Source: Colwellia sp. (GTDB lineage Bacteria; Pseudomonadota; Gammaproteobacteria; Enterobacterales; Alteromonadaceae). From it: a stretch of DNA of 64,000 nucleotides. This document shows, piece by piece, positions 10,452 through 52,636 of the stretch. The notes under the pieces are model-generated. The model worked only from the letters and a program-made list of their open reading frames with translations, ran no database searches and was not told where the DNA came from. Position numbers and translations under genes: made by a program. The DNA is taken from NCBI GenBank assembly GCA_013215465.1, contig JABSOW010000018.1, forward strand, positions 6,174 to 70,173, written 5' to 3'. How positions within the stretch are numbered: the stretch's first letter is position 1; each line of letters begins with the position of its first letter.

Positions 10452-10456
10452 GCTAA

Positions 10457-12471: not shown

Positions 12472-12494
12472 AAAATAGGCCTTGTTTTATTAAT

Positions 12495-12866: not shown

Positions 12867-13131
12867 TTAACACCGTATGAGTCAGAGAAAAGATACTGGC
12901 TTGAATACAAATCCGTGGCCAGTTTTACTTGATCACTACAGGTATATCAACATGCCCAGGGCCAAACATTTGTCGGAAAATATCGATGGATATACGTTTA
13001 CCTTGTTCATGGTTATTCAACACATAACGCCCAAGTGATTGTTCACAAACGTAATTATGTGCGATTTATCTGTAACTCATGATTATGATTGCGCTTCAAA
13101 TAAATCCATATTTTCATTCATATCACTCTCC

Positions 13132-16551: not shown

Positions 16552-16564
16552 TAAACGTCCTTAT

Positions 16565-17264: not shown

Positions 17265-17324
17265 TATTTATATAGGTATTTATGCCCATATTACCGGTCG
17301 ACTGATAACGCACTAACAACGGCA

Positions 17325-21924: not shown

Positions 21925-21929
21925 GTTCT

Positions 21930-37284: not shown

Positions 37285-37320
37285 ACAGATATCAATCTAC
37301 TATTATTGATATCTGTTTAA
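37285..37320. terminator. Bidirectional terminator between pldA and the M48 protease gene
   Basis: ACAGATATCAAT-8 nt-ATTGATATCTGT with flanking A/T runs. Confidence 0.6.
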
Positions 37321-37348: not shown

Positions 37349-38812
37349 CTACTGGACTATTTTTATCCAATCTCCTGCAGTAGGCTCACCTCTGGGATAT
37401 AAGCCATTAATTAGTCTGAGTTGCTGAGCAGCATAAGAGCCAATTTTCATATGCTTGGCCAGCTCATCAATGCGTGTTCTATCATTGGCTTTAACGTAGT
37501 GAAGTGTTTTCGATTTTTTTCGCTTAGACTGAGTTCTTTCAGGTCTGAAACTACGAATGCTTTTTAAAAAAAGCTGGTCATAATCAATATTTTCTTGCGC
37601 GTTAAGTACACTTGCATCCAGTAAATAAACTCTACTTCCCTGATATAAAACGGCAACTCGGCGTTGATAATTTCCTTGTTCATCATTGATGATACCGGTA
37701 TGACCAACCAAACCATATTGTGAAAAACTTTCTGAGCGTTGCAATATTTTAACATTCATCGCTTTACGAAGAAAATCACCTGGTGCTATGCCTTTAACAT
37801 TACGACTAACCATTAACTTAATCTCCGCAGACTTATCATCTGGCTGACTCACAATAGCTTGGCGAGTTTTATTTACTGTCCATTGAGCAGGAAATAAAAT
37901 GGAAAATCCAAGTTTTTTATGAATATAACGCCACTTCTCTACTGGCTTAGACTTTGGCATGGCATCATAGTTTATACCATACACTAAACCATCAATATGC
38001 TGTCGATAGGCTTCTCTGTTGGCTGAATCATCGATATTACTAGGGAACTCTCCAGCTTTAGCGATAATTTCATTTAGACGAATGTCATTGCGTGGGTGTG
38101 AAGCAAAAAGACCATGATAAGATTTCGTTTTTTTTCCTTCATTTTTCGCACGATATCGGGAAAATTTTTCCTGATCTTTCAATATTCCTATCGTTTCCAC
38201 CATCGCATGAGGATCATAACCACTATTAAACAGATATTCCGCGCCAAACCCGTCAGCTTCTAATTCCATTTCACGCCCATATCCTTTAACTGCTGCCGTA
38301 CTCATTAAATTGGTCACATCACCTAACACCATGCTGCCTGTAGTAAAAATCGACACTATAGATAAGGTACTAGCACCTTTTTTTGCGGTATCTTGGCGAA
38401 CTACATGCCTAGCGGTTACATGAGCAATTTCATGGGCCAATACTGCAGCAAGTTGAGCTTCAGAGTCTAGAAATGCAAGTAAGCCTCTATTGATGTAAAT
38501 ATAGCCACCAGGTAAAGCAAAAGCATTGATATTTGGGGAATCAATAATAGTGAAATGATATTTAATTTCAGGCCTATCACTATTTTTTACAATTTTTTGC
38601 CCTATGCTATCAATGTATGCGGTTAATTTATCATCTTGATAAATTGGCATAGATTTAAGAATTTTTTCATGGAGTTCTTTGCCCATATTAATTTCAGCAC
38701 TTTCAGACATCAATACTAAGTCAGGTGTACCTGTTGCAGGGTTTATTGCACATGATGGTAGCAATGTGATTACGCTGATGAATAAAGCAATCAACAAGAT
38801 TTCTCTTTTCAT
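37349..38812 (-). CDS. M48-family metalloprotease lipoprotein with C-terminal LysM-like domain
   Basis: 487 aa with a lipobox (LLPSC) and an HEIAHV zinc motif. The C-terminal ~45 aa (YVKANDRTRIDELAKHMKI...INGL) is LysM-like. Confidence 0.85.
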   Translation of the reverse strand: MKREILLIALFISVITLLPSCAINPATGTPDLVLMSESAEINMGKELHEKILKSMPIYQDDKLTAYIDSIGQKIVKNSDRPEIKYHFTIIDSPNINAFALPGGYIYINRGLLAFLDSEAQLAAVLAHEIAHVTARHVVRQDTAKKGASTLSIVSIFTTGSMVLGDVTNLMSTAAVKGYGREMELEADGFGAEYLFNSGYDPHAMVETIGILKDQEKFSRYRAKNEGKKTKSYHGLFASHPRNDIRLNEIIAKAGEFPSNIDDSANREAYRQHIDGLVYGINYDAMPKSKPVEKWRYIHKKLGFSILFPAQWTVNKTRQAIVSQPDDKSAEIKLMVSRNVKGIAPGDFLRKAMNVKILQRSESFSQYGLVGHTGIINDEQGNYQRRVAVLYQGSRVYLLDASVLNAQENIDYDQLFLKSIRSFRPERTQSKRKKSKTLHYVKANDRTRIDELAKHMKIGSYAAQQLRLINGLYPRGEPTAGDWIKIVQ

Positions 38813-38873: not shown

Positions 38874-39539
38874 TTAATCTGTTTGAAAAAAGCTTTTTAA
38901 CTGATTTCCCATGGCTTTACAGGCATCAGCCTGAACTGGTGCGATGATAGGAATTGGCACCACAATAGCGGGCATATAAGAAGTGCCTTCGGCAACACTG
39001 CTTATTTTGCCAACAAACGTTCTAGTGCGATAATCCCAAATTGATGCTTCGTATTCAGCATTATCATCCCAAGTACCAAAGCCAAAACAGGCAACTCCTG
39101 CGGGTGAAATACCACAACTAATACTGCCACTACCACGAGTTTTTTCCGTATTACCGTCCACCCATACAATATAATGAACATCATAATCGTCGATAATTTC
39201 TGAAACTTTATCGTAAGAAAATAACCTGTGTAGGCCTTTAATATGTGTCGGCGCTGTTCTTGCCTCAAACCATGGATACAAACGGTCAACAAAATCATTT
39301 TCTGGAATTACGTTTATGCCATTTTCTCCTTGGCCAAGCACACTGCCGATACAAGAAATTAATTCTGGTTCAGTCTCATAGTCGCTACCACTTCGCCGAC
39401 CAATAACAACTATCGAATCTTTTGCATTCAATGTGCTAGCTTGATGTTTTACTTCATCAACGATTACAGTGGTACAGCCAGAGATAAGCCACACATACAG
39501 TAAGAAATAAATAAGTTGAGTTGTTTGTTTGAAGTTCAT
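38874..39539 (-). CDS. Hypothetical lipoprotein (last gene of the 12-gene operon)
   Basis: 221 aa with a lipobox LISGC. Starts 11 nt downstream of the preceding gene. Confidence 0.6.
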   Translation of the reverse strand: MNFKQTTQLIYFLLYVWLISGCTTVIVDEVKHQASTLNAKDSIVVIGRRSGSDYETEPELISCIGSVLGQGENGINVIPENDFVDRLYPWFEARTAPTHIKGLHRLFSYDKVSEIIDDYDVHYIVWVDGNTEKTRGSGSISCGISPAGVACFGFGTWDDNAEYEASIWDYRTRTFVGKISSVAEGTSYMPAIVVPIPIIAPVQADACKAMGNQLKSFFQTD

Positions 39540-39550
39540 AAAATTAACTC

Positions 39551-40315
39551 CTATAAATAGCCAAAGTTCAATGAATTATTTGCCAATTGCACAGTAATTA
39601 ATTCCGTTTGAGACTTGTTCTTTTTATAATGTTTTCTTATCTGTGAAATACTATGTTTTTGTTTTAGCCAATTGTTAATCTCAGGTATATGTATGAATCT
39701 CAACGATAGAGCTGCACCTATATCGCGCAAGGCGATAATCATGGCTTCATTAAGCGCTCTCTTTTGAGATTTAAAAAATGCGGTTGGTGTTTTGCCATAT
39801 GCAGTTTGAATCCAATCAGCAATCAACTGCCCCTGATCATCGTAGACTTTCATATTGTATTTGATCCAAACCTCAAACATATTAATGTTAGTTTCATCTG
39901 GAACGTTGTACTGAAATTCTTCCACTTTAGGCTTGAAAAAAAGATCTATGCTAGTGTCCGTTGCCACACTAGGTACGTCAGCAGAAATATTAGTCGCGAG
40001 CTTTTCATTCTTAGTAACAACAACACTTTTAAACATTGCGCTAAGCACGGTATTAAATAATTTTACCTGTGACTTTCCTATACCTATGTCCCACTCATTA
40101 CGTTCTTCATTTTTTTCAATATATCGATAAGAGCGAAATTGCTCTTCATATATGATCCCCACATTCAAAGGTATTATATTAATAACGGGCGTAGGAAAGT
40201 TGCCTTCTACTTCTAAAGTACTTTTACAACTCATTAAACTAAGCAGCAAACTAAGTACTAAACCGAACATCCCTAATCTAGTAACCATAATGAAAATTTT
40301 ATTCAAATAAATCAT
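39551..40315 (-). CDS. Hypothetical lipoprotein
   Basis: 254 aa with a lipobox SLMSC. I recognise no domain. Confidence 0.6.
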   Translation of the reverse strand: MIYLNKIFIMVTRLGMFGLVLSLLLSLMSCKSTLEVEGNFPTPVINIIPLNVGIIYEEQFRSYRYIEKNEERNEWDIGIGKSQVKLFNTVLSAMFKSVVVTKNEKLATNISADVPSVATDTSIDLFFKPKVEEFQYNVPDETNINMFEVWIKYNMKVYDDQGQLIADWIQTAYGKTPTAFFKSQKRALNEAMIIALRDIGAALSLRFIHIPEINNWLKQKHSISQIRKHYKKNKSQTELITVQLANNSLNFGYL

Positions 40316-40336
40316 TGGCGACCTCCGCCTTATTCG

Positions 40337-41344
40337 TTAATTTTGGGGTTGATAATGGTTAAGCCCAACAAAAGTGCCACCATTACGGAAAGTAAGTTCT
40401 CTCATCAATGTTGCAAAGCGAATGCCTGTTCTTTGCAAATTCTTTGGTCGAATAAATTGCACAGGAAAGCCCACCGCATGAATACGTACCAAGCGCTGAT
40501 CATGTTCATTTACCTTATTAATTCTTTCAATGGTCGAGAGTACATTGCTTATTGAGCTTCCGGAAAATTCATCTCCCATCACATAAATACTAATTTTTTT
40601 ATCTTGTGAAAAAAAGGTTCGAATAGCTTTTTGAATTCCCTCGACCGGACTACTATTACTAAACGGATTCCAAGTTCTAAGCCTTTTTATAATGGCATCT
40701 CGTCTTGCTTTAGTATCAGGTATCCACTGTCGACGGTAGTTAGTAAACATGTAATTTCCCATATCATTCATCACCTGAATGCCTTTAACTTTAGGGTAAA
40801 TATTTAATGTTGCGACTATTTCTTCTAACATCCTGTCCCAGCCGTAATTAAACATGCTGCCAGAAGTATCAATAATAAAAATTAAGTATTCACTATCAAC
40901 GGGAATTCCGCCAATAAAGTCATTTTTACTGGTATAATTCTCTCCCAATAAACGTTCCATTTCTACGGTAAGCTCTTGTAATGCAATGGCTAATTTACCT
41001 TTTTCTTTGTGGCTAAAAGAAGCCGCTTTTGACATTTGTGCATATTGTGCTTGTATCGTTGCCAAACGCGTTCTTAGAATAGCTACCCGCTTCTTTTCAT
41101 GATCTATTTGTTCATGTTTTGCCGTTAAATCTCTGTTAAAAATAATAGACTCACCTCGAACCTCAAATAAGGTTTGTTGTAAATTTTTTATTTGACCATC
41201 AAGGTTTTGGGTCGATTCTTCTAACACTATCGGCCCGACAGTTTTTGTGATCATTAACAGTAAAATAATCGCACCAAAGCCACAGCAAATAACATCTAAA
41301 AATGCGATGGAAAATTCGTCTGTTCCTCTCTTATTCCTTTTCAT
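40337..41344 (-). CDS. MotB-like single-TM protein with coiled coil and VWA domain (paralog 2)
   Basis: I chose the internal start MKRNKRG (41344; AGGGGA RBS; 8 nt after the upstream stop). Has a TM helix FSIAFLDVICCGFGAIILLLMI with an embedded Asp, ~110 aa of heptad-rich sequence, and a VWA domain with DTSGSM. Confidence 0.7.
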   Translation of the reverse strand: MKRNKRGTDEFSIAFLDVICCGFGAIILLLMITKTVGPIVLEESTQNLDGQIKNLQQTLFEVRGESIIFNRDLTAKHEQIDHEKKRVAILRTRLATIQAQYAQMSKAASFSHKEKGKLAIALQELTVEMERLLGENYTSKNDFIGGIPVDSEYLIFIIDTSGSMFNYGWDRMLEEIVATLNIYPKVKGIQVMNDMGNYMFTNYRRQWIPDTKARRDAIIKRLRTWNPFSNSSPVEGIQKAIRTFFSQDKKISIYVMGDEFSGSSISNVLSTIERINKVNEHDQRLVRIHAVGFPVQFIRPKNLQRTGIRFATLMRELTFRNGGTFVGLNHYQPQN

Positions 41345-41352
41345 TAAATCCC

Positions 41353-42429
41353 CTATGGCCAATCTTTTGATGGGCTCATAAAAGAACCTGCGGTCAATTG
41401 AGCCAATTTCCAAAATAATGAAGCGGCCATAGGATCTCCTTCCATTGGCCATAGTAAAATATTTACTGGGATACCTTGTGGCAAAGCGTCTATTGCTAAG
41501 GCAAATAATTTCTCTCTTTCAACGCCACTGATAATATGGTTATTGCTCGGTGTTATACCTTGGGTTGGCAGCCCATCTGTTATTAAGATAATATTATCTG
41601 GCAGGGGATCTAAGAAATGAATGCTTAGAAAAGCACGCTCTAAACTGGTACCGCCATGAGGTATAATTTCATGTAAATTTTTAATGCTATCGTTTAGTTG
41701 CTGTTGATTATCAACCGACAGCCATTTAATCACAGCGCCTTGTTTGGCTGCTTTGACTTCAGTATTGAAGACAAACAATTGAAATTGACTATTTAAGGAA
41801 AACTTGGCAATTAACCACTCTACCGTTTTGATAGCTCGTTGCCACTTTTTCGACTGTTTTCTTAGCTGTTCGGTCATGTTTCTACGGCGAATAATATTAA
41901 CAATGCGGCTATCGAGCATACTGGCAGAGCCATCAAGTAATATCAAAGTACGGCTACCACCAAGCCTTAGCCCAGTTAAATATTGACGGTCTCCCTGCCC
42001 AGCAAACCTTCGGGCATTATTACCTTTAGCCTGCTCGTCTGCCAATTTTTTCCTTTCAAGCATTAAGGTTTTCAGCTGTTCTTCCATTTTTACAATTTGC
42101 TGATCGTCACTTTCCTCCGATAATTTTGTTACTTTATTATCAATAGCGTCGATTTCATCATTTATTCGTCGCGCCAAACCGCTACTTTCAACTAACTCTT
42201 GGTCGAGTAAAGACAGGGTGTTTTTAATTTTTACTAAGTGTTTTTCGCCGATAATTATTTCTTCATTTAATAAATTAACTTCCGCCTTTAAGTCCAAGTT
42301 TTGCTCTTCAACTTGACTATTCATATCGTGTTTGATAATTAAAAACACTAAAATAACGGCACCAAAACCGCAGGACATTATGTCTAGAAATGAAAGGCTA
42401 AAAGTCGAGAACTTTCTTTTATTGGTCAT
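41353..42429 (-). CDS. MotB-like single-TM protein with coiled coil and VWA domain (paralog 1)
   Basis: 358 aa. TM helix FSLSFLDIMSCGFGAVILVFLII (compare MotB YADFMTAMMAFF), a coiled coil, and a VWA domain with complete MIDAS residues (DGSASM, GGTS, ITDG). Confidence 0.75.
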   Translation of the reverse strand: MTNKRKFSTFSLSFLDIMSCGFGAVILVFLIIKHDMNSQVEEQNLDLKAEVNLLNEEIIIGEKHLVKIKNTLSLLDQELVESSGLARRINDEIDAIDNKVTKLSEESDDQQIVKMEEQLKTLMLERKKLADEQAKGNNARRFAGQGDRQYLTGLRLGGSRTLILLDGSASMLDSRIVNIIRRRNMTEQLRKQSKKWQRAIKTVEWLIAKFSLNSQFQLFVFNTEVKAAKQGAVIKWLSVDNQQQLNDSIKNLHEIIPHGGTSLERAFLSIHFLDPLPDNIILITDGLPTQGITPSNNHIISGVEREKLFALAIDALPQGIPVNILLWPMEGDPMAASLFWKLAQLTAGSFMSPSKDWP

Positions 42430-42434
42430 ATTAA

Positions 42435-43784
42435 TTACATTTCCTCTTCAACTTTGATGAGCACAAAACATGCCTTATTTTTACCGTCAGTTTGCTTGAT
42501 GGTTATTTGATCACCTTGTAAAACAATTTGACCGTCAATTGCCGGTTGATCATTTAAAAATACCTTTTGTGTATTTAAATGTGCATCAGTTAAGTGTGCA
42601 TTGGTTAGGTTTAATTGCCATTTAGCTGCGTTAGGCGCTAACACTATGGATGCAGACTGAGCCACTAGCGGTGCAATTCTTCCTTTTTGCAAACATGACA
42701 AAGACAATGAATGATCGTTAAGGGGGAAAGCTCTACCGTCTAAGAGGATGTGTGATATCTCATATTTATTTGCTAACGAATTGTTTATTGACTGTTTAGC
42801 GGCTTCAGGCTGAGTTTTAGTTTCTTTAACTAACGGTAAACGGGTAACTAAAAATACGCCATTATCATTAGAAAAATTAGCCATATTGGCTGTCACAAGG
42901 GAGTATATACAAGCATCATTTAATAAATGTACCGTGTCGCTAGCAAATAAGTTAGGACATAAATTCGCAAAGCGTGAAGTGATAAATAGTGGAATGTTTT
43001 TATCACTGCGCTTGCTACAGCTTGCGAGTAATTCAGTGAAAAATTCTTCTATTTGCTGATTAATGTCTTTTTGAGCAACATTAATGCTTTTACCATCAAT
43101 GATAAGCTCGAAGTAGTTTTGAGAGTTTTTAATTAATTTCGATAATTGATTATATAACTGCTGCTCGGTTACCGCGCTATAAAATGCATCTAAACGATGT
43201 TCTTTAATTAATTGATGATTCAACCATTGGGCAAGTTGTTCATATAAATCATAAAATCCTTTGTGGGTAAATTGGTCCATATTACCGAGTGAAACATCAT
43301 GGTTAACTAATAATTCAGTTAAACTGCTATGATGCAAACTTATATCTAAAATAGCATATCTTCCAACATTATAACGATGTTCAAATCGTACTAGCGTCTT
43401 ATTTACCAGGCCTAAGACATTAAGATGACAACTTTGTGCAATACCTAATAATAATGACAATTGCTCTTGATTATAGGAACTTGGCACCACAAATATGACA
43501 TCTGAGCAATGATCCACATGACTAACCAAATTTTGTAATTGCATATAAGCTAAATCGGCAAAATTATTAATATAGTTATTATCACAATGTACTTCTTCAT
43601 AGCTTAAACGTTGCCAATAATGACAAAAACTGGCTTGGGGTGAAATACGGGCTTGTAACCAAGCTTCTTCACCAAAAACGACACTATCTTTGGTTATTTG
43701 CGCAAATCCTAGTTCACTATAATGTGAATGTTTTTGCCTTACGGTCAATTGATAATCATTAAGCTCAATGATGGTTAACGGCAT
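42435..43784 (-). CDS. Degenerate Hsp70/actin-fold-like cytoplasmic protein
   Basis: 449 aa with no signal peptide. DVIFVVPSSYNQEQLSLLLGIAQSCHLNVLGLVNKTL resembles the Hsp70 block VITVPAYFND.QR.AT.DAG.IAGL.V.RIINEPTAA. AILDISLHHSSLTEL resembles the phosphate-2 region, but the DxG motifs are absent. The C-terminal ~70 aa may form a beta-sandwich (weakly FHA-like). Confidence 0.5.
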   Translation of the reverse strand: MPLTIIELNDYQLTVRQKHSHYSELGFAQITKDSVVFGEEAWLQARISPQASFCHYWQRLSYEEVHCDNNYINNFADLAYMQLQNLVSHVDHCSDVIFVVPSSYNQEQLSLLLGIAQSCHLNVLGLVNKTLVRFEHRYNVGRYAILDISLHHSSLTELLVNHDVSLGNMDQFTHKGFYDLYEQLAQWLNHQLIKEHRLDAFYSAVTEQQLYNQLSKLIKNSQNYFELIIDGKSINVAQKDINQQIEEFFTELLASCSKRSDKNIPLFITSRFANLCPNLFASDTVHLLNDACIYSLVTANMANFSNDNGVFLVTRLPLVKETKTQPEAAKQSINNSLANKYEISHILLDGRAFPLNDHSLSLSCLQKGRIAPLVAQSASIVLAPNAAKWQLNLTNAHLTDAHLNTQKVFLNDQPAIDGQIVLQGDQITIKQTDGKNKACFVLIKVEEEM

Positions 43785-44596
43785 TAGTCGGCTCCATCAG
43801 TATCTGTTTTTAAATGATTTAATAAATTGGAATCACAATACTCTTGAGTATTTTGTACTAACCTTTCTTGCATTAATTGCAATTGGTGAGTGAAAAACAT
43901 AATAAAAATACTAATAACAAGTGCAATAAAAGTTGAATTAAAGGCAACACCTAAACTATTTGTCACGCCAATGATATTCCCTTCTACCGCTTGATGAGCT
44001 TGGCCTAATGCTTCTCCAATACCACGTACGGTACCAATAAAACCTATTGAAGGAATTGCCCACGAAATATAGCGAATCATAGCCAACTCACTATCAAGTC
44101 TATCGGCTTCCGAGTCACAAATATCTTTAATAGCTGTGGCTACGGCGGCGACACTAGCAGTCGCAGAAAAACGTTGTAAAGCAATCAGTAAGGTTCTTGG
44201 CGCTAACATTTGCTGCTGCTCTACAGAAAGCTTTTGTAACGGTCTACACAAATTTCGAGCATCTTTTGGTAATATGCTCGCCCCTTCTTGTATGTTTAAC
44301 ATGCTATGTGCAAGCATGTTTTTTTCTTGCACCGATAACCTTGCCTTGTATCCCATGATCATTAATACCCAAAACATTAAAATGAAACAGGTTTCTTGCT
44401 CATAATCTTTCAATACCACATAAATAGATCTTTTATTTGTTACGGTACTGCCAGCAATGAACTGAGCTTGTTGTTGCTTAATAATTGCGTCAGCTTCTGG
44501 ACGGATCATGGTAACGTATGTGGCATGCACTAAAATAATTGCGACAAGAAGAGCCATTAGCTGATAAACAAATTCGGTTCCGGTGGTTCGTTTCAT
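43784..44596 (-). CDS. MotA/TolQ/ExbB-family proton-channel protein
   Basis: 270 aa. TM1 is near the N-terminus, and a C-terminal TM pair (ISWAIPSIGFIGTVRGIGEALG and LGVAFNSTFIALVISIFIMFF) is typical of the family. Its stop overlaps the next start (TAATG). Confidence 0.8.
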   Translation of the reverse strand: MKRTTGTEFVYQLMALLVAIILVHATYVTMIRPEADAIIKQQQAQFIAGSTVTNKRSIYVVLKDYEQETCFILMFWVLMIMGYKARLSVQEKNMLAHSMLNIQEGASILPKDARNLCRPLQKLSVEQQQMLAPRTLLIALQRFSATASVAAVATAIKDICDSEADRLDSELAMIRYISWAIPSIGFIGTVRGIGEALGQAHQAVEGNIIGVTNSLGVAFNSTFIALVISIFIMFFTHQLQLMQERLVQNTQEYCDSNLLNHLKTDTDGAD

Positions 44597-44615
44597 AGTA
44601 CTTTCCTAATATAAA

Positions 44616-44954
44616 TTAAATATCAACGGGGAAGGAAACAGCCAAATCTTCAGAAATAGCTTCGGTTGGAATAAATCGGTCATCGTTATTTTTTTTATTC
44701 GGGGGAACTGTTTCTTTTTTAGTAACTTGTTCCTCTGCTAAGTTGACCTTAGCTGGCAGGATGGCTTGTCTTGGGGCAGTTTTTTGCGCTTTAGTAATCA
44801 TCTGTACAGCCTGTAGGTGATTAAGAGTGATGAGCTGCCAAGCGTTGTTACTATCAGTTTTATCTGTTATTAGGTTATTTTTACCGACAACAAGAAATGA
44901 TGTCGTAATAGCCAATAAAGTAATCAAGGCGGTGTTAAAATAAATTATTTTCAT
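44616..44954 (-). CDS. Small signal-anchored or secreted hypothetical protein
   Basis: 112 aa with an N-terminal hydrophobic segment. Lies inside the operon, 19 nt upstream of the MotA-like gene. Confidence 0.55.
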   Translation of the reverse strand: MKIIYFNTALITLLAITTSFLVVGKNNLITDKTDSNNAWQLITLNHLQAVQMITKAQKTAPRQAILPAKVNLAEEQVTKKETVPPNKKNNDDRFIPTEAISEDLAVSFPVDI

Positions 44955-44987
44955 ACATAGTCCTTAAAGATATTTCTTAAATAAGAC

Positions 44988-47096
44988 TTATTGAGCATAT
45001 CTCGCTATTCTAAACCCTAGATCATTACGTTTGTCATTCCCATAATCACGAAAAGATAAGCGTAATTGAGTTCGACTGCCATAAGCCCAACTAGCCCCGC
45101 GAATAACATGATAATCACCCGTTATCGGGCCCATGGGATCTTTTTCAGCCGCTAGTGATAATCCGGTTTTTATTTGATAAAAATCATGTATCCATTCAGC
45201 CGCATTACCGGATAAATCAAAAATCCCTTTTTTATTGGTTGAAAAGGAGGCTACTGGAGCTGTGGTAATAAAGCTATCATTGTAGGTAGCTTGGATATAA
45301 CCTAATATTGGTGCACCCGCGATATCCGCAATATTTCCAGCATTTTTTTTCGGCGGTAAATTTTTTCCCCACGAATATTTAAGCATCTTCCCATCAGAAT
45401 AACGGGCAATCCATGCCCATTCAGCTTCAGTTGGCAACCGGTAACCATTAGCTTGTTCATTGAAATGGGTGACTTTATCATCGACTATTTGATAGACCTT
45501 AGTTAATTTTTCTTGCTCCGATAACCAATTACAATACTGCGCGGCTTGTAGCCAAGTCATTTTGACTGCTGGTTGTGCTAAACCATTTAAGCTATTGCCC
45601 TTAACATGCCCCGAAGAATGATCTTTGTGAAACTGGCGAAATTCTTTATTGGTGACTTCAGTAAATCCCAAATAGAAAGCCTTACTTAGGTGTATTGTTC
45701 TTTTGACTTCATTGGCACGTCGCCCTTGTTCTCTGCGTGATGCTCCCATAATAAAGGTATCATCGGGTTTAAATAATTTGAGTTTACTACCGGTAGCAGA
45801 AACAATTATTTCTTTGATATTTTCCCATTTAGCTTGTTCTATAGTTTTCAATTGCACTGAAAAAACTTGTTCCATAGAGCTATTTGGTAAAATATTACTC
45901 TGGTAACTTGCATAGCCTTCTTTTTCAATTCTTATTTTTTGTTGTTTAACCGCTATTGTTACACTTTTATTAGCACGTCCCATCAGCCTGTCACCTATAT
46001 ACAACAATGCATCCTCAGGAGAAACATTAAATTTAATGACGCCAACATCCAGCTGTAAAGTGAAGTTTTTTGCAACCTTTGCCCCAGATGGCACCAACAA
46101 GTCGACCGATTGCGACTGGTAGCCATCTTTAAATAATAATAAAGCTTGTTTTATATTAGGTTTTACCTCCGCAGTTATTGGTGTTACCCCCAAATATTGC
46201 TCACCGTAAGTAACACTTATACCCGCAGGCACAGAGGAAATAGAAAGTTTGCCCATTAATTTAAAAAGCTTGGCGAGTGCTAAGCTATGATCTGCACCTG
46301 CGACAACGCTAAGCTCCCTTTCTGTTTGCTGATAACCTGTTTTCTTAAAAAGAAAATTTTGTTCACCTTGTAATATGTCTACATATAAAGGTGTGCTACC
46401 TAAAAGCTTGTCATTATGGTATACCTGAGCGCCTATAGGCTCGGAATTTATACTTACTTTGCCCCAGGCAGGGAGCAAATTAATCGTTAAATTTTGAGTT
46501 TTTTCCATACCACCGATGACAAGATCATTGTGATAAGTAAAATATTTTTCTGATAGTACTGATATCTGGTGCTGACCTGCAGCAAGGTTTTTTATGATAT
46601 TATCTTGCAGTTGTACCGGCTGGTTATCAAGTAAAACCTCAACATCAATATCAGGTTGAATAGCCAACTTTAAATGTCCGGGCAATTTTTTAAAATCAAA
46701 ATTAAGGTGTTGATTCTGTTCTTCCGCCACGATGAATTTTTCATCCAAGGGGTGATATCCCACGGCGTGAGACTTAAACTGGTATTCTCCAGATAACATT
46801 AATAAATGATCGGACATTTTGAAATAAAGCCCCCCTGTTATTATCATTTCATGACTTGTGGGCTCAGTAGTAATAACGACCGATTTAGCACTAACCAAAT
46901 ACCATAAAATCACCACAGCACTGAATAATAAGGTAGCCAATAGATAGAAAACTGGCTGACGTCTTTTCACCACCTTTATTACTTTCCCTGTTGATGGGGA
47001 AAATGCAGCTGCTACTATGGTATTACTGTCTGCATGAATACTTTCTGTAGCAGTAGCTCCATCCGTTTCAACTTTATCATTAAGTAATTTATTCAT
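44988..47096 (-). CDS. Membrane-anchored PEGA-repeat protein with C-terminal FGE-sulfatase (SUMF1-like) domain
   Basis: 702 aa: one TM helix (VFYLLATLLFSAVVILWYLV), at least 5 PEGA-like modules, then FGE-fold motifs (GYRLPTEAEWAWIAR, NAAEW, RGASW, LGFRIAR). Confidence 0.85.
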   Translation of the reverse strand: MNKLLNDKVETDGATATESIHADSNTIVAAAFSPSTGKVIKVVKRRQPVFYLLATLLFSAVVILWYLVSAKSVVITTEPTSHEMIITGGLYFKMSDHLLMLSGEYQFKSHAVGYHPLDEKFIVAEEQNQHLNFDFKKLPGHLKLAIQPDIDVEVLLDNQPVQLQDNIIKNLAAGQHQISVLSEKYFTYHNDLVIGGMEKTQNLTINLLPAWGKVSINSEPIGAQVYHNDKLLGSTPLYVDILQGEQNFLFKKTGYQQTERELSVVAGADHSLALAKLFKLMGKLSISSVPAGISVTYGEQYLGVTPITAEVKPNIKQALLLFKDGYQSQSVDLLVPSGAKVAKNFTLQLDVGVIKFNVSPEDALLYIGDRLMGRANKSVTIAVKQQKIRIEKEGYASYQSNILPNSSMEQVFSVQLKTIEQAKWENIKEIIVSATGSKLKLFKPDDTFIMGASRREQGRRANEVKRTIHLSKAFYLGFTEVTNKEFRQFHKDHSSGHVKGNSLNGLAQPAVKMTWLQAAQYCNWLSEQEKLTKVYQIVDDKVTHFNEQANGYRLPTEAEWAWIARYSDGKMLKYSWGKNLPPKKNAGNIADIAGAPILGYIQATYNDSFITTAPVASFSTNKKGIFDLSGNAAEWIHDFYQIKTGLSLAAEKDPMGPITGDYHVIRGASWAYGSRTQLRLSFRDYGNDKRNDLGFRIARYAQ

Positions 47097-48616
47097 CCGT
47101 TAGTCACTTTTTCATTACATAAAATAATTATTTTTTTTAGCTGATTTGCTGGCATTAAGGTAAAGTCTTGCCTTACATCTCTAAATCCGTTTCTAGAACC
47201 GACTAAAGTATAATCACCAGGCCTTAGTGAAATGCTTTTCGACAAAAAACTACCCAACTCACCGACTCTATGTAAGGTAATACGTGTTTGGTTGTCAGAT
47301 TCAATTCGAAGGGAGACCGGGGTGTTCATTTGTAATAACACCTGCTCAACATTATGTATTTGCTGAGCTAACTTAACACCGGGCTGTTTAATTTGCTGAG
47401 CCTGTTGTTGCGTTAACATGGCTTGTTGGTAAACATTTTTATTCGCTAATCTTTGTGGTTTATTAATAATATAAAGTATTTTTTTCTCGAGATTTTCTCT
47501 CGCCAAAGTACGAATTCCTCCTAACCTGGCATGCATTAATGAGCCGTCTAACGTTAACGCAGCTTGGTAACTACCCTTAGCTAATAACCAATCTTCACTA
47601 CGCTCAAAATCTTGTGCTTTTTTGATGTGATCCGCTATATAAAATTGGGTTCTTTTATTTTGAGTCTGTTCAATTGCATCTTTAGCATCCGCTTTATTAG
47701 GATTAATTTTATCTGCCAAGGTAAAATTCTTTATTGCTGATTTAAATTGCTGAATTTGCAAATGTCTATAACCCGCCGACATGGCTGTGGAATAATCCCT
47801 TGTCATAATAGCTTGATTTACAATCAATAACTGTTCATTTACCCTAGGTTCGTGATTATCTAATGCGTAAGCTTGAGTAAACTTTTCTTTGGCTTTTATC
47901 AATAAAAGCTCATCCATTAACACCTCACCCGCTTTTACTAGTAATAAGACTTGGTCTAGGACAATGGCGCGATCAAATGCACTGGTCGCCATTTCATTAT
48001 TTTCACTAATGTATAATGCTACTTGTAATTTTTCTTTGGCTTTTTGGGCATTATTTGCCGCTAAGGCTTGTATTCCTTGCTCAAGATAATCACTAAAGAC
48101 ACTGTCAGCCTGAGCACTAATATCATTTAATTGCTGCAATGCTCGATTATAAGTAGTAATGGCCTGATCAAATTTTTGAGTTCGATAGAACAAATCACCC
48201 GATTCGGCAGTTTTTATTGCTTGAGCAAATTCATCTGCGTTCCACAGTTCTACATGTTTATCTTCCAGCACTTGCTGCTGTTGTAAAAGTGTTGATAAGA
48301 CTTCTTGTGCCGCTCGCCGATATTTAGTTAATTGCACTTCATGCCAAGGAGACTCATCAATCACTTTTAACGGCTCCTTAGCTAAAATAACACTAGCTTC
48401 GTTAACAACACCGGCCTTATCTACTGACTGAGGTAACCAGAAAATAACAAAATATAAAGTTGCACAAAGGGCGATTAATAAAAGCACGATAAAAACATTA
48501 CCCGAAAACCAATGAAAAATTGCTTTTTGGGGTAAGAATGACTTATCTTCAAAGTTAAATGAAATCGACTCTGATTTTACTGATTCACTTTTATCATTAT
48601 CTTGCTTCATTAACAT
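47093..48616 (-). CDS. Membrane-anchored TPR-repeat protein with C-terminal PEGA-like module
   Basis: 507 aa: a TM helix (VFIVLLLIALCATLYFVIFW), TPR-like helical repeats, and a C-terminal LRPGDYTLVGSRNGFRD. Overlaps the next gene by 4 nt (ATGA). Confidence 0.7.
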   Translation of the reverse strand: MLMKQDNDKSESVKSESISFNFEDKSFLPQKAIFHWFSGNVFIVLLLIALCATLYFVIFWLPQSVDKAGVVNEASVILAKEPLKVIDESPWHEVQLTKYRRAAQEVLSTLLQQQQVLEDKHVELWNADEFAQAIKTAESGDLFYRTQKFDQAITTYNRALQQLNDISAQADSVFSDYLEQGIQALAANNAQKAKEKLQVALYISENNEMATSAFDRAIVLDQVLLLVKAGEVLMDELLLIKAKEKFTQAYALDNHEPRVNEQLLIVNQAIMTRDYSTAMSAGYRHLQIQQFKSAIKNFTLADKINPNKADAKDAIEQTQNKRTQFYIADHIKKAQDFERSEDWLLAKGSYQAALTLDGSLMHARLGGIRTLARENLEKKILYIINKPQRLANKNVYQQAMLTQQQAQQIKQPGVKLAQQIHNVEQVLLQMNTPVSLRIESDNQTRITLHRVGELGSFLSKSISLRPGDYTLVGSRNGFRDVRQDFTLMPANQLKKIIILCNEKVTNG

Positions 48617-48711
48617 CTCCGCTTTAAAAGAGTTCTGTGCAACTGTTCATTACTAAAAGCTTTAACATCCCTAGTCAATTTATAGACTATATATGGGTAT
48701 AAACCATAGAT

Positions 48712-49917
48712 TTAATGACTTTCATTCAAGGTTACACCTTGATTTATCTTATAAATGTTTTGTAATATCTCACGCCACTGTTGATACTGATTGTCAACGG
48801 TACCAGAGAGTGTGACGGTTCGATCTTCAAGTTCAACCACGTTATTTTCAATGCTAGCTTCTAATGAATCACCTAACTCTTGTAATACTTCGATATGTAT
48901 TTGTGATTCAGCATCACGTTCATAGCCATCTTTTAATATATAGGCACCCGCTGTAACGCCAACAATACCTGCGGCTCTTACCGAGCCACTGCCATTTCCA
49001 GCCCCTATTATTCCGGCAATAATAGCGACGGCACCGAATATTTTTTGATTCATTGCTTTACTCTCCATTGTTCGCATTGCAAGCACTTCACCATAACTTT
49101 CACGGCGCCATTGTAAGTATGGTGGCTCCATTTGTTTGGCATATCTGCTGTAATATTCTTGCAAAGTATCAACAAATAGATAATCACGCTCTCGAACCTG
49201 CCGGATTCGGGCCATCATAGGATCACCTTCAGCGGGCAAACGATTAATAGAATAAATGCCCGAATTATCTGTTGTCAGGTGCTCCAAAAACATTTGCGGC
49301 GCAAATGATTGAGCAAATTTTAATTCAGCAACCTGGCGGATTTTTATTAACTCGTTAGCAGATAATTTTTTTCTATAGACATTTAAATCATTAGCAATTA
49401 GGTTATACATATTTTGAAATGGTTCTTTACTCACTTTAAGCTTTTTATCATATGAATACCGGCTAGCTTTTTGATCATATTGTTTGGAAAACCAAATTTT
49501 ACCAAGAGAATCAATAGCTTCTATATTTATGCTCAAAACTTCACCATCAGACTTTACAATATTCCCCTTAATCAAGACATCAACAGAATCATGTTTTCTC
49601 GGCACTACTCGTACCGCTCCCCAGGCAGCACTATTTTGCAAAGACTCCATTAATAAATGAGGAAAATAGTTGGCTTCCGCTATTCTAATTTCGGGAAAGA
49701 CTATTTCATCTTCATCGAGTTCATCTAATCTTTCCAGTCCAGGCTGAAATATTCTAATACCAACGTCTAATAATTCAGATTCGGGGATATCGTCCAATTC
49801 ATGCGTGACAGGCACAACTTTTGTGGTCTTTATATCGACGGAGCTACATGCAGTCATTGTCATAGAAATTACTGTCATCAGTAGCACCAATAAATAAAAT
49901 TTGAATTTCTTCATCAT
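48712..49917 (-). CDS. Hypothetical lipoprotein with C-terminal glycine-zipper segment
   Basis: 401 aa with a lipobox MTACS and the Gly-rich hydrophobic stretch AIIAGIIGAGNGSGSVRAAGIVGVTAGAYIL. Confidence 0.65.
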   Translation of the reverse strand: MMKKFKFYLLVLLMTVISMTMTACSSVDIKTTKVVPVTHELDDIPESELLDVGIRIFQPGLERLDELDEDEIVFPEIRIAEANYFPHLLMESLQNSAAWGAVRVVPRKHDSVDVLIKGNIVKSDGEVLSINIEAIDSLGKIWFSKQYDQKASRYSYDKKLKVSKEPFQNMYNLIANDLNVYRKKLSANELIKIRQVAELKFAQSFAPQMFLEHLTTDNSGIYSINRLPAEGDPMMARIRQVRERDYLFVDTLQEYYSRYAKQMEPPYLQWRRESYGEVLAMRTMESKAMNQKIFGAVAIIAGIIGAGNGSGSVRAAGIVGVTAGAYILKDGYERDAESQIHIEVLQELGDSLEASIENNVVELEDRTVTLSGTVDNQYQQWREILQNIYKINQGVTLNESH

Positions 49918-49938
49918 TGATTTTTACCTTATCTGTAT

Positions 49939-50997
49939 TTAATTATTGGCTTTCTTATATTTACGGTACTCTTGCCATAACTTTTCACGTAACACAGGAT
50001 CTGCTTCATTAAGCGCAGCTTCTCTTATTTGCCGAGCAACAACATCGTCATCATTACCGCTGGAAATATCTGCAGGAGGAGCATAAACCGTTTGTTTATG
50101 CTTAAAATCACCGTCTTTATCATTGGATGATACTGTCGGCATATTTCCTACACCTGAACTTGATGAATTTCCAGGCTTGTTACTTGCTTGCTGATTAGAG
50201 CTTTCCGCCTCGCCATTGAGTACATCATCATATAGGGTGCCGACATCAGCAACTTCAACCTCTTGCTCACTACCTTCTTCATTTCCTCTATTTTGTATAT
50301 ATTCGCGCTCCGTTAAAATCATGCCATCATAATCACCCATGGACCGGTCTAGTTGTTCATCCAACTCTCCCACCCGTTCAGAACGGGTCAGAGCGACCTC
50401 TGCTTGTGATTGACCAGAAGTAGTACTGCCTGCTGATGAATCTGCACTTTGAGATGAATCATTAGCTGAACTATTATTTTGAGTATTTTGCGCTGATTTT
50501 TCACTTTGCTCAGCTTGAGCACTGGATGCACTATTTTCTTCTTCTGAAAAATCTATTTCATCACTAGGGTTGGTTGAGCTTTCGCCACTGATACTTTCTA
50601 AATTTTCATGTTTTTCATCACCATCACCACCATTTTGTTGATTTTTGGCCTCCGTGTACTGCTCTTCTCCTTCTCTCCCCTCTCCTTGTTGGTTTGATGG
50701 CAGACTGCTCCCCTTATCACTTGATTTACTTGTAGACTGTTGACTTGAAGATTGTCGGTTTTTGGCGGTTTTTCCTGATGTTGATGATGCTTTTGACCTA
50801 TCTTTTCGGGCTGATTGACTAGCACTACTTGGTTGAGAACGACTAGAAGAACTGCTAGCGGTACTTGCGCTCGCAGGTTTTGAACTTTTAGCCGCCGGAG
50901 GCTGTTGAGGTGGTTGCGGACTTTGCTGAGTTGTTTTACAACCAACTACACATATTGCTAACGCCGTAATCATCACTAAGATATATTTTGTATTCAT
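49939..50997 (-). CDS. Low-complexity Ser/Gln/Glu-rich lipoprotein
   Basis: I chose the start MNTKYIL (50997). Has a lipobox VVGCK, about 250 aa of S/Q/E/N-rich disordered sequence, and a short conserved-looking helical C-terminus. Confidence 0.65.
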   Translation of the reverse strand: MNTKYILVMITALAICVVGCKTTQQSPQPPQQPPAAKSSKPASASTASSSSSRSQPSSASQSARKDRSKASSTSGKTAKNRQSSSQQSTSKSSDKGSSLPSNQQGEGREGEEQYTEAKNQQNGGDGDEKHENLESISGESSTNPSDEIDFSEEENSASSAQAEQSEKSAQNTQNNSSANDSSQSADSSAGSTTSGQSQAEVALTRSERVGELDEQLDRSMGDYDGMILTEREYIQNRGNEEGSEQEVEVADVGTLYDDVLNGEAESSNQQASNKPGNSSSSGVGNMPTVSSNDKDGDFKHKQTVYAPPADISSGNDDDVVARQIREAALNEADPVLREKLWQEYRKYKKANN

Positions 50998-51021
50998 AAT
51001 TCCCCCCAAATGGCTTTTTAT

Positions 51022-52308
51022 TTATGGAAAAACATGGAGCTGAAATTGAGCGGTAAACATCAGACTGCCATCGGCAATGCGCGGTCTGAACCTAGCTGAT
51101 CGTAAAGATTTTAAAACTTTTGAACGCATTCCCATATTATTTTTTGGATAAGAACTTACTATTTTAAGATTTTGTACTTTGCCATAACGGGTAATGTCCA
51201 TAGATGCATGTACATATTTCACATCTTCTAAGTTACTATCATTTGGTAAGTTAGTAGTAGAATTATTATAGATATTTGGAAGATCGGGTAATACCACAGG
51301 AACATTAAATAACTCATTAAATTTATTGTTATTTTCATTATGCGTATTAGCATATGCATACGCTTGTTTATAATGACTGCTGGCTAGCTGCCTTTTACCG
51401 TACATTAAATACCAGTCAGCTAATTTAAGCATTGCCTTAGAAACATGCATATGATCTATCGGCTGTTGCTCGTTATGTACAGCTAACTCCCGTTGAATAA
51501 GCTCTACCCCAGTAGAAAAACTTTTACGTTTCATAAAACTTATTTTTCTACCAGATATACTATGCTCTTTGGCATAGCTGCCGTCTGAATTAATAGTGAC
51601 CGATTCAGCTAAAATGGTAGTTGCAACAAGGTAATTTGCCAATATCAAGCCATTTAAAGCAGGAATAACTCGAATATCAGTTTCACTGTAAGTATTACTC
51701 ATAAGTTCCAAAGCATTCTGGTAAGACCCATAAGCATTAATTAAGTCTCTTAACGGTGCAGCTGATAGCTGAACTGAATAGGACTTCAAATACCAATGCG
51801 CCTTTTCCATCTGAATTTCGAGCATCTTAATATTATCAGCAGCAAAATTTTTACTGTATAACCAACTCAAATGTGAATATCTTTTGTCCACCTTTGGCCA
51901 TTGTTTTTTTTCTTTCAAACTGGTGATTAGTTTTCGAATAATGGGAATTTGTGTCGTTGAGTACAAACCGTCATTAATACGATTTAAATGTGCTGAGCGC
52001 TTAAGAAATTTGATCGCTTCGTCATGTCGACCGTATTCTTGATAGATGCTGCCGAGATTCATTAATTCTTGTGTTAATCGGCTACCATAGGCGCCATCTT
52101 GACTTTCGATTTCTTCAATAGCAACTTGATATTTCTCGACAAAGTTAGCTAGTGTCTGGTCGTCAAATTTAGCAGATTTACTTGCTGAAGAGTTAGCAGT
52201 CGATAAAGATGTTGTTACCTTAGTTACCGCTACAGAAGTAAACGAAAAGCTATATTTAGTTACTAAAATTAATAAGGTAAATAATAAAACTTTTAAAAAT
52301 AATCTCAT
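51022..52308 (-). CDS. Secreted TPR-like protein with TonB_C-like C-terminal domain (first gene of operon)
   Basis: 428 aa with a signal peptide and TPR-like repeats (NLGSIYQEYGRHDEAIKFLKRS). The C-terminal ~80 aa (GKVQNLKIVSSYP...LKSLRSARFRPRIADG) resembles the TonB C-terminal fold. Confidence 0.6.
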   Translation of the reverse strand: MRLFLKVLLFTLLILVTKYSFSFTSVAVTKVTTSLSTANSSASKSAKFDDQTLANFVEKYQVAIEEIESQDGAYGSRLTQELMNLGSIYQEYGRHDEAIKFLKRSAHLNRINDGLYSTTQIPIIRKLITSLKEKKQWPKVDKRYSHLSWLYSKNFAADNIKMLEIQMEKAHWYLKSYSVQLSAAPLRDLINAYGSYQNALELMSNTYSETDIRVIPALNGLILANYLVATTILAESVTINSDGSYAKEHSISGRKISFMKRKSFSTGVELIQRELAVHNEQQPIDHMHVSKAMLKLADWYLMYGKRQLASSHYKQAYAYANTHNENNNKFNELFNVPVVLPDLPNIYNNSTTNLPNDSNLEDVKYVHASMDITRYGKVQNLKIVSSYPKNNMGMRSKVLKSLRSARFRPRIADGSLMFTAQFQLHVFP

Positions 52309-52636
52309 AATTTATCCTCAGAAATATTCTAAACCACAGCAATTGATCTTCCATATCAGAAGAAAAACCGCATCGTAATTGTAAGACTATTATTTCCTTG
52401 GAGAATACTTGTTCAAAAATTTTTATTATTTGGGTGACTAATATAGAACAAATTTATTACTTAACAATAACTGTATAAATTTCACTATGTTCGTACGTAA
52501 ATCGGTCACTCGGTGATTTAAAGTATAGATGCGATTAAATTGATGTAAAGGATTCAATGTTAAAAATTGGCGGTGTTGTAGTTTAGTATGAGTAAAAGAA
52601 GGCTCTTTTGTCTGTGTTTAATCTGAGTGTTTTTGT

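Follow-up and report, generated by a model that had tools for sequence, protein, structure and literature searches.

A conserved twelve-gene cluster of Colwellia sp. encodes a probable ion-driven motor with VWA-bearing subunits and a set of candidate envelope partners

Ion-driven motors of 5:2 stoichiometry are a general route by which energy passes from the inner membrane to the periplasm or outer membrane of diderm bacteria. The Ton, Tol, GldLM and Zorya families each opened a field once they were understood. A further kind was predicted in 2025 in 'Origin and Evolution of Bacterial Periplasmic Force Transducers' (Mol Biol Evol 2025;42:msaf138, PMC12204202, Fig. 4c-d), where motors of TolQ-like and VWA proteins are described. 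In this family, TolQ-like genes are tightly linked to those of transmembrane (TM)-tethered VWA proteins that are 'predominantly found in heterologous pairs', with no tolR or exbD nearby. Each VWA protein of the pair has a transpore helix that resembles that of TolR/ExbD and bears an Asp, and an AlphaFold 3 5:2 model has the two Asp residues enclosed by the Thr ring of the pentamer. The family ranges over Proteobacteria and Verrucomicrobia, and was seeded from Idiomarina loihiensis; its function was given as unknown and no phenotypes were reported. Another VWA family of the same study, presented first, consists of tolQ plus two tolR genes, with the VWA proteins as external transducers. Here, we analyse a 64,000-nucleotide stretch of Colwellia sp. 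DNA (assembly GCA_013215465.1, contig JABSOW010000018.1, positions 6,174 to 70,173 of the forward strand; hereafter the window) that contains a cluster of twelve genes, g1 to g12, in which a MotA/TolQ/ExbB-family channel is encoded together with two VWA proteins of this type. With moderate confidence, we read the cluster as encoding a proton-driven 5:2-type motor that powers an envelope-spanning machine. The genes of the cluster, and a facultative thirteenth gene (g13) downstream of it, are as follows.

51022..52308, minus strand: g1, secreted TPR protein with a TonB_C-like C-terminus, 428 aa (TPR_12, 2.7e-10)
49939..50997, minus strand: g2, disordered S/Q/E-rich lipoprotein (lipobox VVGC)
48712..49917, minus strand: g3, 401-aa lipoprotein that contains a glycine zipper and ends in a weak BON-like region (lipobox MTAC)
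47093..48616, minus strand: g4, bitopic inner-membrane protein with a TM helix, TPRs and a PEGA-like C-terminus (TPR_11/TPR_2, 1e-5)
44988..47096, minus strand: g5, bitopic inner-membrane protein with a TM helix, five PEGA repeats and an FGE-sulfatase-like domain (FGE-sulfatase, 1.9e-36; PEGA, 2.8e-29)
44616..44954, minus strand: g6, small protein, secreted or anchored, whose linker is variable (open reading frame between g5 and g7)
43784..44596, minus strand: g7, MotA/TolQ/ExbB-family channel (PF01618 MotA_ExbB, 3.1e-13)
42435..43784, minus strand: g8, cytoplasmic protein like an Hsp70 nucleotide-binding domain, with an FHA-like C-terminal beta domain (AlphaFold2 and Foldseek)
41353..42429, minus strand: g9, B-like subunit 1 with TM helix, stalk and VWA domain (VWA_2, 2.9e-5)
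40337..41344, minus strand: g10, B-like subunit 2, paralog of g9 (VWA, 0.0058)
39551..40315, minus strand: g11, lipoprotein of an unannotated family (lipobox LMSC)
38874..39539, minus strand: g12, lipoprotein of an unannotated family (lipobox ISGC)
37349..38812, minus strand: g13, M48 lipoprotein protease, the facultative thirteenth gene (Peptidase_M48, 5.1e-35; lipobox LPSC)

The twelve open reading frames (ORFs) run in one direction on the minus strand, from 52308 to 38874. An earlier note on this DNA, made from its letters alone, had described a co-directional cluster with gaps of -4 to 95 nt and two overlaps, and its coordinates and gaps are confirmed. From g1 to g12, the successive gaps are 12, 21, 95, -4, 33, 19, -1, 5, 8, 21 and 11 nt, with an ATGA overlap at 47093-47096 (g4/g5) and a TAATG overlap at 43784 (g7/g8). 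The start of g10 was corrected to the internal ATG at 41344, rather than 41452, as it lies behind an AGGGGA Shine-Dalgarno sequence and agrees with the N-termini of orthologs. The start of g2 is most likely the ATG at 50997 behind GGAGGA, not the TTG at 51009; with this start the g1-g2 gap is 24 nt instead of 12. The domain calls of the earlier note largely stood as well. Family, profile and structure searches, detailed below, bear out a TPR protein with a TonB_C-like end (g1), a TM-TPR-PEGA protein (g4), a TM protein with five PEGA modules and an FGE domain (g5), a MotA/TolQ/ExbB channel (g7), a degenerate Hsp70-like protein (g8), two paralogs with a TM Asp, a long helical stalk and a VWA domain containing a metal-ion-dependent adhesion site (MIDAS; g9 and g10), and the lipoproteins g2, g3, g11 and g12, all with lipoboxes. 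For g13, which had been called an M48/LysM lipoprotein 61 nt downstream of g12, the M48 domain, the lipobox and the distance hold and LysM does not: its C-terminus has no LysM match in Pfam at E<=0.1, and a PDB sequence search was also empty.

The channel protein g7 has 270 aa, and its best NCBIfam model is TolQ (1.3e-7, 31.6 bits, against an equivalog cut-off of 221 bits). Its orthologs are 56-82% identical across orders. Over 23 diverse orthologs, the pore-helix motifs WAIPSIGFIGTVRGIG (with T189) and AFNSTF (with T222) are invariant, both threonines falling in TolQ-type pore motifs, and His24 in TM1 is invariant too. A second N-terminal hydrophobic segment is found at about residues 66-84, behind an invariant (K/R)D(Y/F)EQE(A/T)C. 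The sequence suggests a MotA-like topology of four helices rather than the three of TolQ and ExbB, and the TM helices of g4 and g5 might dock at the second hydrophobic segment.

Both B-like proteins have the same plan. In g9, a short basic N-terminal tail is followed by a TM helix with an invariant Asp16, a helical stalk of about 120 residues and a VWA domain, whose MIDAS is complete and invariant in 79 sequences (D166, S168, S170, T261, D285). The AlphaFold2 model of g9 has a helix at 14-141 and the VWA domain at 160-358, and Foldseek matched it to the VWA structures ITIH1, 4fx5 and TEM8 at about 1e-6. Likewise, in g10 a basic N-terminal tail leads to a single TM helix, where Asp17 is invariant, and on through a long helix to a VWA domain with a complete MIDAS that is invariant in 75 orthologs (D159, S161, S163, S229/S231, D258). 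A BLASTP match between g9 and g10 (4e-10, 21% identity) identifies them as paralogs. Their TM helices share an invariant FLD(I/V)xxCGFGA, with no His and no SHLS motif. From the TM Asp to the MIDAS Asp, the distance hardly varies: it is 146-156 residues in g9 (mode 154) and 139-144 in g10 (mode 142), as expected of a stalk that works as a ruler. The two genes are 8 nt apart here and overlap by 4 nt in Microbulbifer, which is consistent with production of g9 and g10 in a 1:1 ratio. No dedicated B subunit of a known type accompanies them. In Pfam and NCBIfam, none of the 13 operon proteins matches ExbD, TolR or MotB; ExbD, MotB and OmpA likewise have no match in these proteins or in the three nearest flanking genes, and precomputed Pfam tables of the Microbulbifer and Porticoccus clusters are equally devoid of a tolR, exbD or motB homolog.

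These features match every published descriptor of the paired VWA family (PMC12204202) that we tested, and by their sequences g7, g9 and g10 appear to belong to it. A MotA/TolQ/ExbB gene lies near a VWA pair, here with g8 between g7 and g9, and no tolR, exbD or motB is a neighbour. The transpore helix carries an Asp, Asp16 in g9 and Asp17 in g10, without SHLS/His. The pair is heterologous, g9 and g10 occurring together in 51 of 51 loci, and the VWA fold is C-terminal, as seen from weak Pfam matches, the g9 AlphaFold2/Foldseek result and the invariant MIDAS. Nothing in the operon contradicts the published family; the other ten genes are absent from the text of the paper. We therefore consider that g7, g9 and g10 probably form a motor. 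The g7 pore motifs and the TM Asp of each VWA protein are extremely conserved, which points to an ion-coupled function.

Two other readings of these three proteins bear on this conclusion. In one, g9 and g10 would be TolA/TonB-like transducers outside the g7 pentamer, with a TolR/ExbD dimer supplied from another locus. The first VWA family of PMC12204202 works in this way, and a profile search of PDB detected no sequence homology of the g9/g10 helix to ExbD or TolR. This arrangement is clearly unlikely here, however, since the helices have an invariant Asp and no SHLS/His motif, no conserved cluster contains tolR or exbD, and g9 and g10 are a heterologous pair that, apart from g8, directly follows the channel gene, as in the second family. 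In the other reading, the cluster would encode a static envelope scaffold of VWA and TPR proteins of the Bat type, in which the MotA-like protein is a passive channel or sensor that does no mechanical work. Bat operons of Bacteroides and Leptospira do combine TM-anchored VWA proteins with TPR proteins, which counts for this reading. As no MoxR AAA+ or DUF58 protein is encoded in the cluster, and as a passive role leaves the conservation of the pore motifs and of both TM Asp residues to be accounted for, we regard it as very improbable. An ion-driven motor of g7, g9 and g10 is thus the reading that we retain.

A pattern scan, in which each GTDB species was represented by one genome, found close g7 relatives in at least 589 species. 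The best 80 of these relatives are all from Gammaproteobacteria, and include Thalassomonas, Pseudoalteromonas denitrificans, Bowmanella, Microbulbifer, Exilibacterium, Halioxenophilus, Porticoccus, Halieaceae, Woeseiaceae and Arenicella; g7 itself is 100% identical to a protein of a Colwellia sp. metagenome-assembled genome (MAG). Among 1.84 billion proteins, a HMMER search with the g9 profile matched 465 representative clusters at E<=1e-30, for which the only taxon label returned was 'MAG Gammaproteobacteria'. The earlier note had proposed a check of neighbourhood conservation, which we made with tblastn of all window proteins against 84 loci, 51 of which had full flanks. Among these 51, g5, g7, g9 and g10 are present in all, g2, g3, g4 and g8 in 50, g11 and g12 in 49, g1 in 45 and g13 in 30. 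Eleven genes of the cluster thus co-occur in 45-51 of the 51 loci and in the same order: gene order is collinear in nearly all loci, and the order g7-g8-g9-g10 is kept in 50-51 of them. As g6 is below the length that tblastn can score, it was counted by its position in the 84 loci, and 72 of them have an ORF between g5 and g7. The genes that flank the cluster in the window (an M28 peptidase and a phospholipase A1) never co-occur with the cluster elsewhere, and in Microbulbifer and Porticoccus the flanks are unrelated metabolic genes. As flanking genes differ between loci, the module comprises g1-g12, with g13 facultative. That dozens of species with differing flanks have these genes in one and the same order puts the cluster far beyond chance; it behaves as one conserved module and is probably an operon, as had been claimed. 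Sequence identity declines with taxonomic distance, as vertical inheritance predicts.

A few loci depart from this arrangement. In one MAG locus (L079), g8 is missing and g9 begins 49 nt after g7 (10795-10844); g8 is thus either dispensable in at least one lineage or encoded elsewhere. In two Woeseiaceae loci (L072:11481-12248 and L073:14505-15272, both on the plus strand), a 255-aa protein takes the place of g11 and g12; it combines a signal peptide, a glycine zipper and a coiled coil with a peptidoglycan-binding domain of the OmpA family (PF00691, 1.6e-14). Neither g1 nor g13 was detected in these loci. In another locus (L064), a short M48 peptidase gene lies directly 3' of g10. Through the OmpA and M48 swaps, the distal part of the system is linked to the biology of peptidoglycan and the outer membrane.

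The protein encoded between the channel and the VWA pair, g8, has neither a signal peptide nor a TM helix by hydropathy scan, and the window protein has no match in Pfam. Its AlphaFold2 model, built from a 61-sequence alignment, has a mean predicted local-distance difference test (pLDDT) score of 88.1, and Foldseek matches it to the nucleotide-binding domains of DnaK, BiP and Hsp70 (E 2e-16, probability 1.0, 10-14% identity). The positions of the phosphate loops read IELND and DIxLH, and the Gly-rich loops are missing. As both phosphate loops lack a Gly-rich sequence, the term degenerate is fair. Residues of about 345-449 form an all-beta domain. Pfam FHA is matched by 2 of 61 g8 orthologs (best 3.1e-8) and YscD-cpl by one, and the UniRef label of one ortholog is 'FHA domain-containing', so that the C-terminal domain of g8 is best called divergent and FHA-like. 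The protein evolves fast, with 22-34% identity between orthologs.

Three proteins offer periplasmic scaffold domains. In g1, a hydrophobic signal at the N-terminus precedes the TPRs; TonB_C is weak in the window protein (0.0074), is matched in 29 of 39 orthologs (best 4e-9), and the match to the AgmX/PglI tail domain is 0.007 only. By hydropathy, g4 has its TM helix at about residues 41-59, and its C-terminus (425-507) aligns with the PEGA repeats of g5 in hhalign at a probability of 55-95% (maximum 94.6%). The five PEGA repeats of g5 align at 97-99% with the repeat validated by Pfam. g5 is anchored by a TM helix and has no lipobox. Its best NCBIfam model is GldK/PorK (6.8e-27, 94.8 bits, against a cut-off of 350 bits), and by sequence it matches 2y3c (1.3e-14), PorK (about 6e-14) and formylglycine-generating enzymes, FGEs (about 5e-13), in PDB. 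Its FGE domain thus resembles PorK/GldK about as closely as it does true FGEs. The C-terminal active-site stretch contains no Cys. This stretch includes what we take to be the position of the catalytic Cys pair of FGEs, and the missing Cys therefore marks the domain as a non-catalytic scaffold domain.

The small protein g6 has no match in Pfam, NCBIfam or PADLOC. It ends in an invariant acidic 17-mer, FIPTEAISEDLAVSFPVDI-COOH, which across loci reads F.P(S/T)EEISEDLSVSFPVDI-COOH. In 68 of 84 loci there is exactly one copy of this motif, as there is in the window, and it always lies directly upstream of g7. The peptide is a candidate ligand of the VWA MIDAS sites or of the TPR domains.

In all, the 13 genes encode five lipoproteins, none of which has Asp at +2, four bitopic inner-membrane proteins and one cytoplasmic protein. 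g2 has no match in Pfam or NCBIfam, and is conserved only in a C-terminal helix motif, DDD.VARQ.REAA..E.DP.LREKLW.EYRKYK. The G-rich zipper of g3, which the earlier note had also seen, is conserved in the ortholog alignment; its sole family match is BON at 0.0042, under the Pfam cut-off, and a g3 profile found no sequence match in PDB. Neither g11 nor g12 has a match in Pfam, NCBIfam or PADLOC, and a g12 profile matched nothing in PDB. Besides the lipid Cys, g12 has four invariant Cys residues (C63, C142, C151, C207) and a conserved block GSISC..GPGG.GCFGF.TWD, and from its sequence looks like an unannotated disulfide-stabilised fold. Residues 10-259 of g13 match BepA in NCBIfam (4.4e-43), below the equivalog cut-off. 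Six proteins, g2, g3, g6, g8, g11 and g12, have no significant family match in Pfam or the other libraries searched for each.

Two sequence features at the borders of the cluster were noted.

52522..52549, minus strand: promoter-like site TTTACA-16-TATACT upstream of g1, a consensus match only
37285..37316, minus strand: terminator-like hairpin with a 12-bp stem, 33 nt 3' of g13

Promoter-like sites in the region upstream of g1 are no more numerous than in shuffled sequence. The non-coding leader ahead of g1 (52309-53077) is unusually long at 769 nt, and as an Rfam scan of the entire window matched no family, it contains no known riboswitch or small RNA. It is preceded by a 130-aa ORF (53078-53470, minus strand) that has no match in Pfam or NCBIfam and was found by tblastn in 0 of 84 related loci. 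No terminator-like hairpin was seen in the 61-nt gap between g12 and g13, which is consistent with co-transcription of g13. The GC content of the operon, 0.34-0.39, is the same as that of the remainder of the window.

From the gene content, folds, invariant residues and co-conservation described above, we infer a stoichiometry, a rotation, a set of partner contacts and a biological role. Five copies of g7 would encircle one g9/g10 heterodimer, g7(5):g9(1):g10(1), with the N-terminal helices of g9 and g10 setting the invariant Asp in the pore and standing in for TolR, ExbD or MotB. A stalk of about 110-120 residues, some 16 nm long if fully helical, would carry a VWA/MIDAS tip in place of a peptidoglycan-binding domain. 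Proton flow would rotate the pentamer relative to the dimer, and the stalk would pass motion or tension to a platform close to the outer membrane. The lipoproteins g2, g3, g11 and g12 may make up this platform, joined in about 60% of loci by the BepA-like g13. The bitopic g4 and g5 and the soluble g1 would form a periplasmic scaffold, and the acidic C-terminal peptide of g6 may bind MIDAS sites or TPR clamps. On the cytoplasmic side, g8 most likely would dock beneath the pentamer as a regulator or clutch. This is proposed by analogy with GltG of the Agl-Glt system, for whose FHA domain binding to the AglR pentamer, on its cytoplasmic face, has been predicted (PMC11761067).

What such a machine would do is a more tentative matter. 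A housekeeping role in the envelope is suggested by the protease of the BepA type, the swap to OmpA, the TonB_C domain and the PorK-like domain. Vertical inheritance, metabolic flanks, the matching GC content and the absence of plasmid, viral and PADLOC links indicate that the cluster is housekeeping rather than mobile. We thus propose, as one possibility that we still hold to be doubtful, that its role is outer-membrane maintenance by energised tethering, remodelling or quality control.

Several points weigh against the motor and maintenance reading. The match to the family of PMC12204202 is one of shared descriptors. Neither a g7 profile nor the single g7 sequence matched a chain in PDB, so that g7 is a very divergent member of its family, and the transpore-helix profile of g9/g10 returned no MotB chain either, in addition to no ExbD or TolR. 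The role of g9 and g10 as B subunits rests on position-specific features. In the AlphaFold2 monomer, the g9 stalk is poorly supported (pLDDT about 50-60). The partners of the VWA heads are candidates only. At least one locus (L079) lacks g8, which is therefore not essential to the core. Neither an outer-membrane beta-barrel nor a substrate is encoded in the operon. Finally, the assignment of a role leans on weak associative clues, with the M48 gene in 30 of 51 loci and OmpA in one family.

Phage defence was among the roles that the earlier note had thought conceivable, and the window does contain a defence island at about 8-23 kb.

7990..23244, minus strand: defence island, with a PDC-S11 candidate at 7990-8901 and AbiEii at 11026-11985
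13132..16551, minus strand: hsdR of a type I restriction-modification system within the island
18744..20285, minus strand: hsdS of the same system
20269..21924, minus strand: hsdM of the same system

The cluster could then be a Zorya-type anti-phage system, in which a MotAB-like complex senses perturbation of the envelope, and g7 has a weak, partial PADLOC match to ZorA (4.5e-4). The island, however, stops about 14 kb from the operon, and the operon encodes no nuclease, helicase or other effector domain. The metabolic flanks in Microbulbifer and Porticoccus, and an identity that tracks taxonomic distance, also speak against it, and neither tblastn of g9 against 72,556 plasmids nor a viral-contig scan found any copies. 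Since PADLOC on the 13 operon proteins gave only the marginal ZorA match of g7, we rejected the defence reading, which we find barely credible; the PADLOC, plasmid and viral searches thus lend no support to the earlier suggestion.

Further genes were seen in the window. Between hsdR and hsdS lie two inserted candidate defence genes, PDC-S02 (16758-17264) and PDC-S62 (17325-18743, 1.4e-161, no Pfam match), and the island also holds a WYL-domain protein at 22363-23244. A 7TMR-DISM GGDEF diguanylate cyclase is encoded at 28677-30332, and an RND efflux pump (AcrB-like protein, membrane-fusion protein and outer-membrane factor) at 57884-63579, both on the minus strand; neither is conserved beside the operon in other genomes.

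How does the proposed motor and its envelope partners compare with known systems? The earlier note could map the gene content onto none of the Bat, TonB2/Ttp, Agl-Glt and Zorya layouts, and this holds, as the defining genes of each system are missing. Like Tol-Pal, the cluster has a TolQ-family channel, an envelope-spanning logic, outer-membrane lipoproteins, a Pal-like OmpA-family protein (in the Woeseiaceae variant) and, in g1, a fold like TonB_C and the TolA C-terminal domain. Unlike Tol-Pal, it has no orthologs of TolR, TolA, TolB, Pal or CpoB, and the B-like subunit itself bears the distal head. Membership in Tol-Pal was rejected: there are no TolR, TolA, TolB or Pal matches, and g7 reaches 31.6 bits against the TolQ cut-off of 221. 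An ExbBD-TonB or TonB2/Ttp system was rejected too, as ExbD is absent and the only TonB_C is on g1, which has a signal peptide and TPRs and no TM anchor or Pro-rich linker. A MotAB/PomAB stator does not fit either, because g9 and g10 end in VWA and not in OmpA-like domains, and no flagellar genes are found among the window genes scanned. Zorya has in common with the cluster the pairing of MotA-like with B-like proteins and no flagellar link; membership was rejected, as there is no long ZorA tail, no peptidoglycan-binding ZorB domain and no ZorC, ZorD or ZorE. For the Bat/aerotolerance system, the missing MoxR AAA+ ATPase and DUF58 matches led to the same outcome.

The type IX secretion system (T9SS) is similar in other respects. 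PorKLMN/GldKLMN also combine a 5:2 motor with a B dimer that forms a long periplasmic rod towards an outer-membrane assembly, and a non-catalytic FGE-like domain of the PorK/GldK type is the best NCBIfam match of g5. The differences are that g7 is of the MotA/ExbB family and not GldL, that g9 and g10 are not GldM, and that PorN, Sov and the Bacteroidota context are lacking. T9SS membership was rejected, with no GldL, GldM or GldN found and g5 at 94.8 against 350 bits, with a TM anchor rather than an outer-membrane lipobox.

The Agl-Glt/Nfs systems (PMC3169522, PMC11761067) also share components with the cluster: a TolQ-like pentamer with AglQ and AglS as two unlike B subunits, an FHA domain beneath the motor, TPR proteins, TonB_C, outer-membrane lipoproteins and a VWA protein (CglB) as the distal effector. 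In Agl-Glt, however, AglQ and AglS are short and of the TolR type, the VWA domain is on an outer-membrane lipoprotein, the barrels GltA/B are present, and the TM protein GltG bears both FHA and TonB_C; the cluster has none of these arrangements. A gammaproteobacterial Agl-Glt 'core complex' of unknown function has been described from marine Gammaproteobacteria (PMC3169522, PMC11761067). Membership in this complex (aglR, aglQ, aglS, gltD/E/G/C; PMC3169522) was rejected, as the cluster has no TolR-type genes.

These likenesses raise the question of whether the cluster is the core of a surface-motility or export apparatus analogous to Agl-Glt or to T9SS PorKLMN. The domain vocabulary held in common with Agl-Glt (TolQ-like motor, two B subunits, FHA, TPR, TonB_C, VWA and lipoproteins) and with T9SS (5:2 motor, long periplasmic B dimer, FGE-like PorK/GldK domain) speaks for such a reading. 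Yet the operon encodes no barrel of the outer membrane, no translocon, secretin or ATPase, and no adhesin with an export signal; its VWA domains are fused to inner-membrane subunits and not surface-exposed, and g5, with its TM helix and PEGA stalk, is anchored in the inner membrane and is no outer-membrane lipoprotein. We consider a motility or export core rather unlikely.

The earlier note had called the cluster a candidate for an undescribed machine, and had allowed for its proving to be an already characterised system. Both statements hold in part. As the motor core was predicted in 2025, the operon is a member of a recently recognised, experimentally untouched kind that has been described bioinformatically, and the other ten genes and the function are undescribed. 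The text of PMC12204202 has no mention of Hsp70, FGE/sulfatase, PEGA or lipoproteins. In literature searches on ExbB, TolQ or MotA with VWA, FGE, PEGA, Hsp70 and FHA, only that paper and the Agl-Glt papers were relevant, and searches under the RefSeq product names of these genes gave nothing relevant. New here are the full list of conserved parts, the FHA-like C-terminal domain of g8, a PorK-like domain devoid of Cys, the peptide of g6, a stalk of fixed length and the lineage-specific swaps, including the OmpA replacement in Woeseiaceae. The parts list turns a two-gene prediction into a testable model with partners, a scaffold, a candidate ligand, a protease and defined residues, and indicates hosts that can be cultured, for a family that is widespread and includes such ecologically important degraders of marine polymers as Microbulbifer, Porticoccus, Halieaceae, Colwellia and Woeseiaceae.

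In its manner of working, the machine would resemble Tol-Pal or the PorLM-PorKN core, and would be a member of neither family. It is possible, and we put this forward tentatively, that it represents a separate class of 5:2-motor machine, to be set next to the flagellar stators, Ton, Tol, Agl-Glt, T9SS and Zorya, which would serve an unrecognised housekeeping task of the envelope shared by hundreds of marine Gammaproteobacteria. Here the B dimer itself would span the periplasm as the transducer, with MIDAS heads that engage a dedicated lipoprotein platform at the outer membrane in cycles, possibly via the g6 peptide, and g8 would gate the motor from the cytoplasm.

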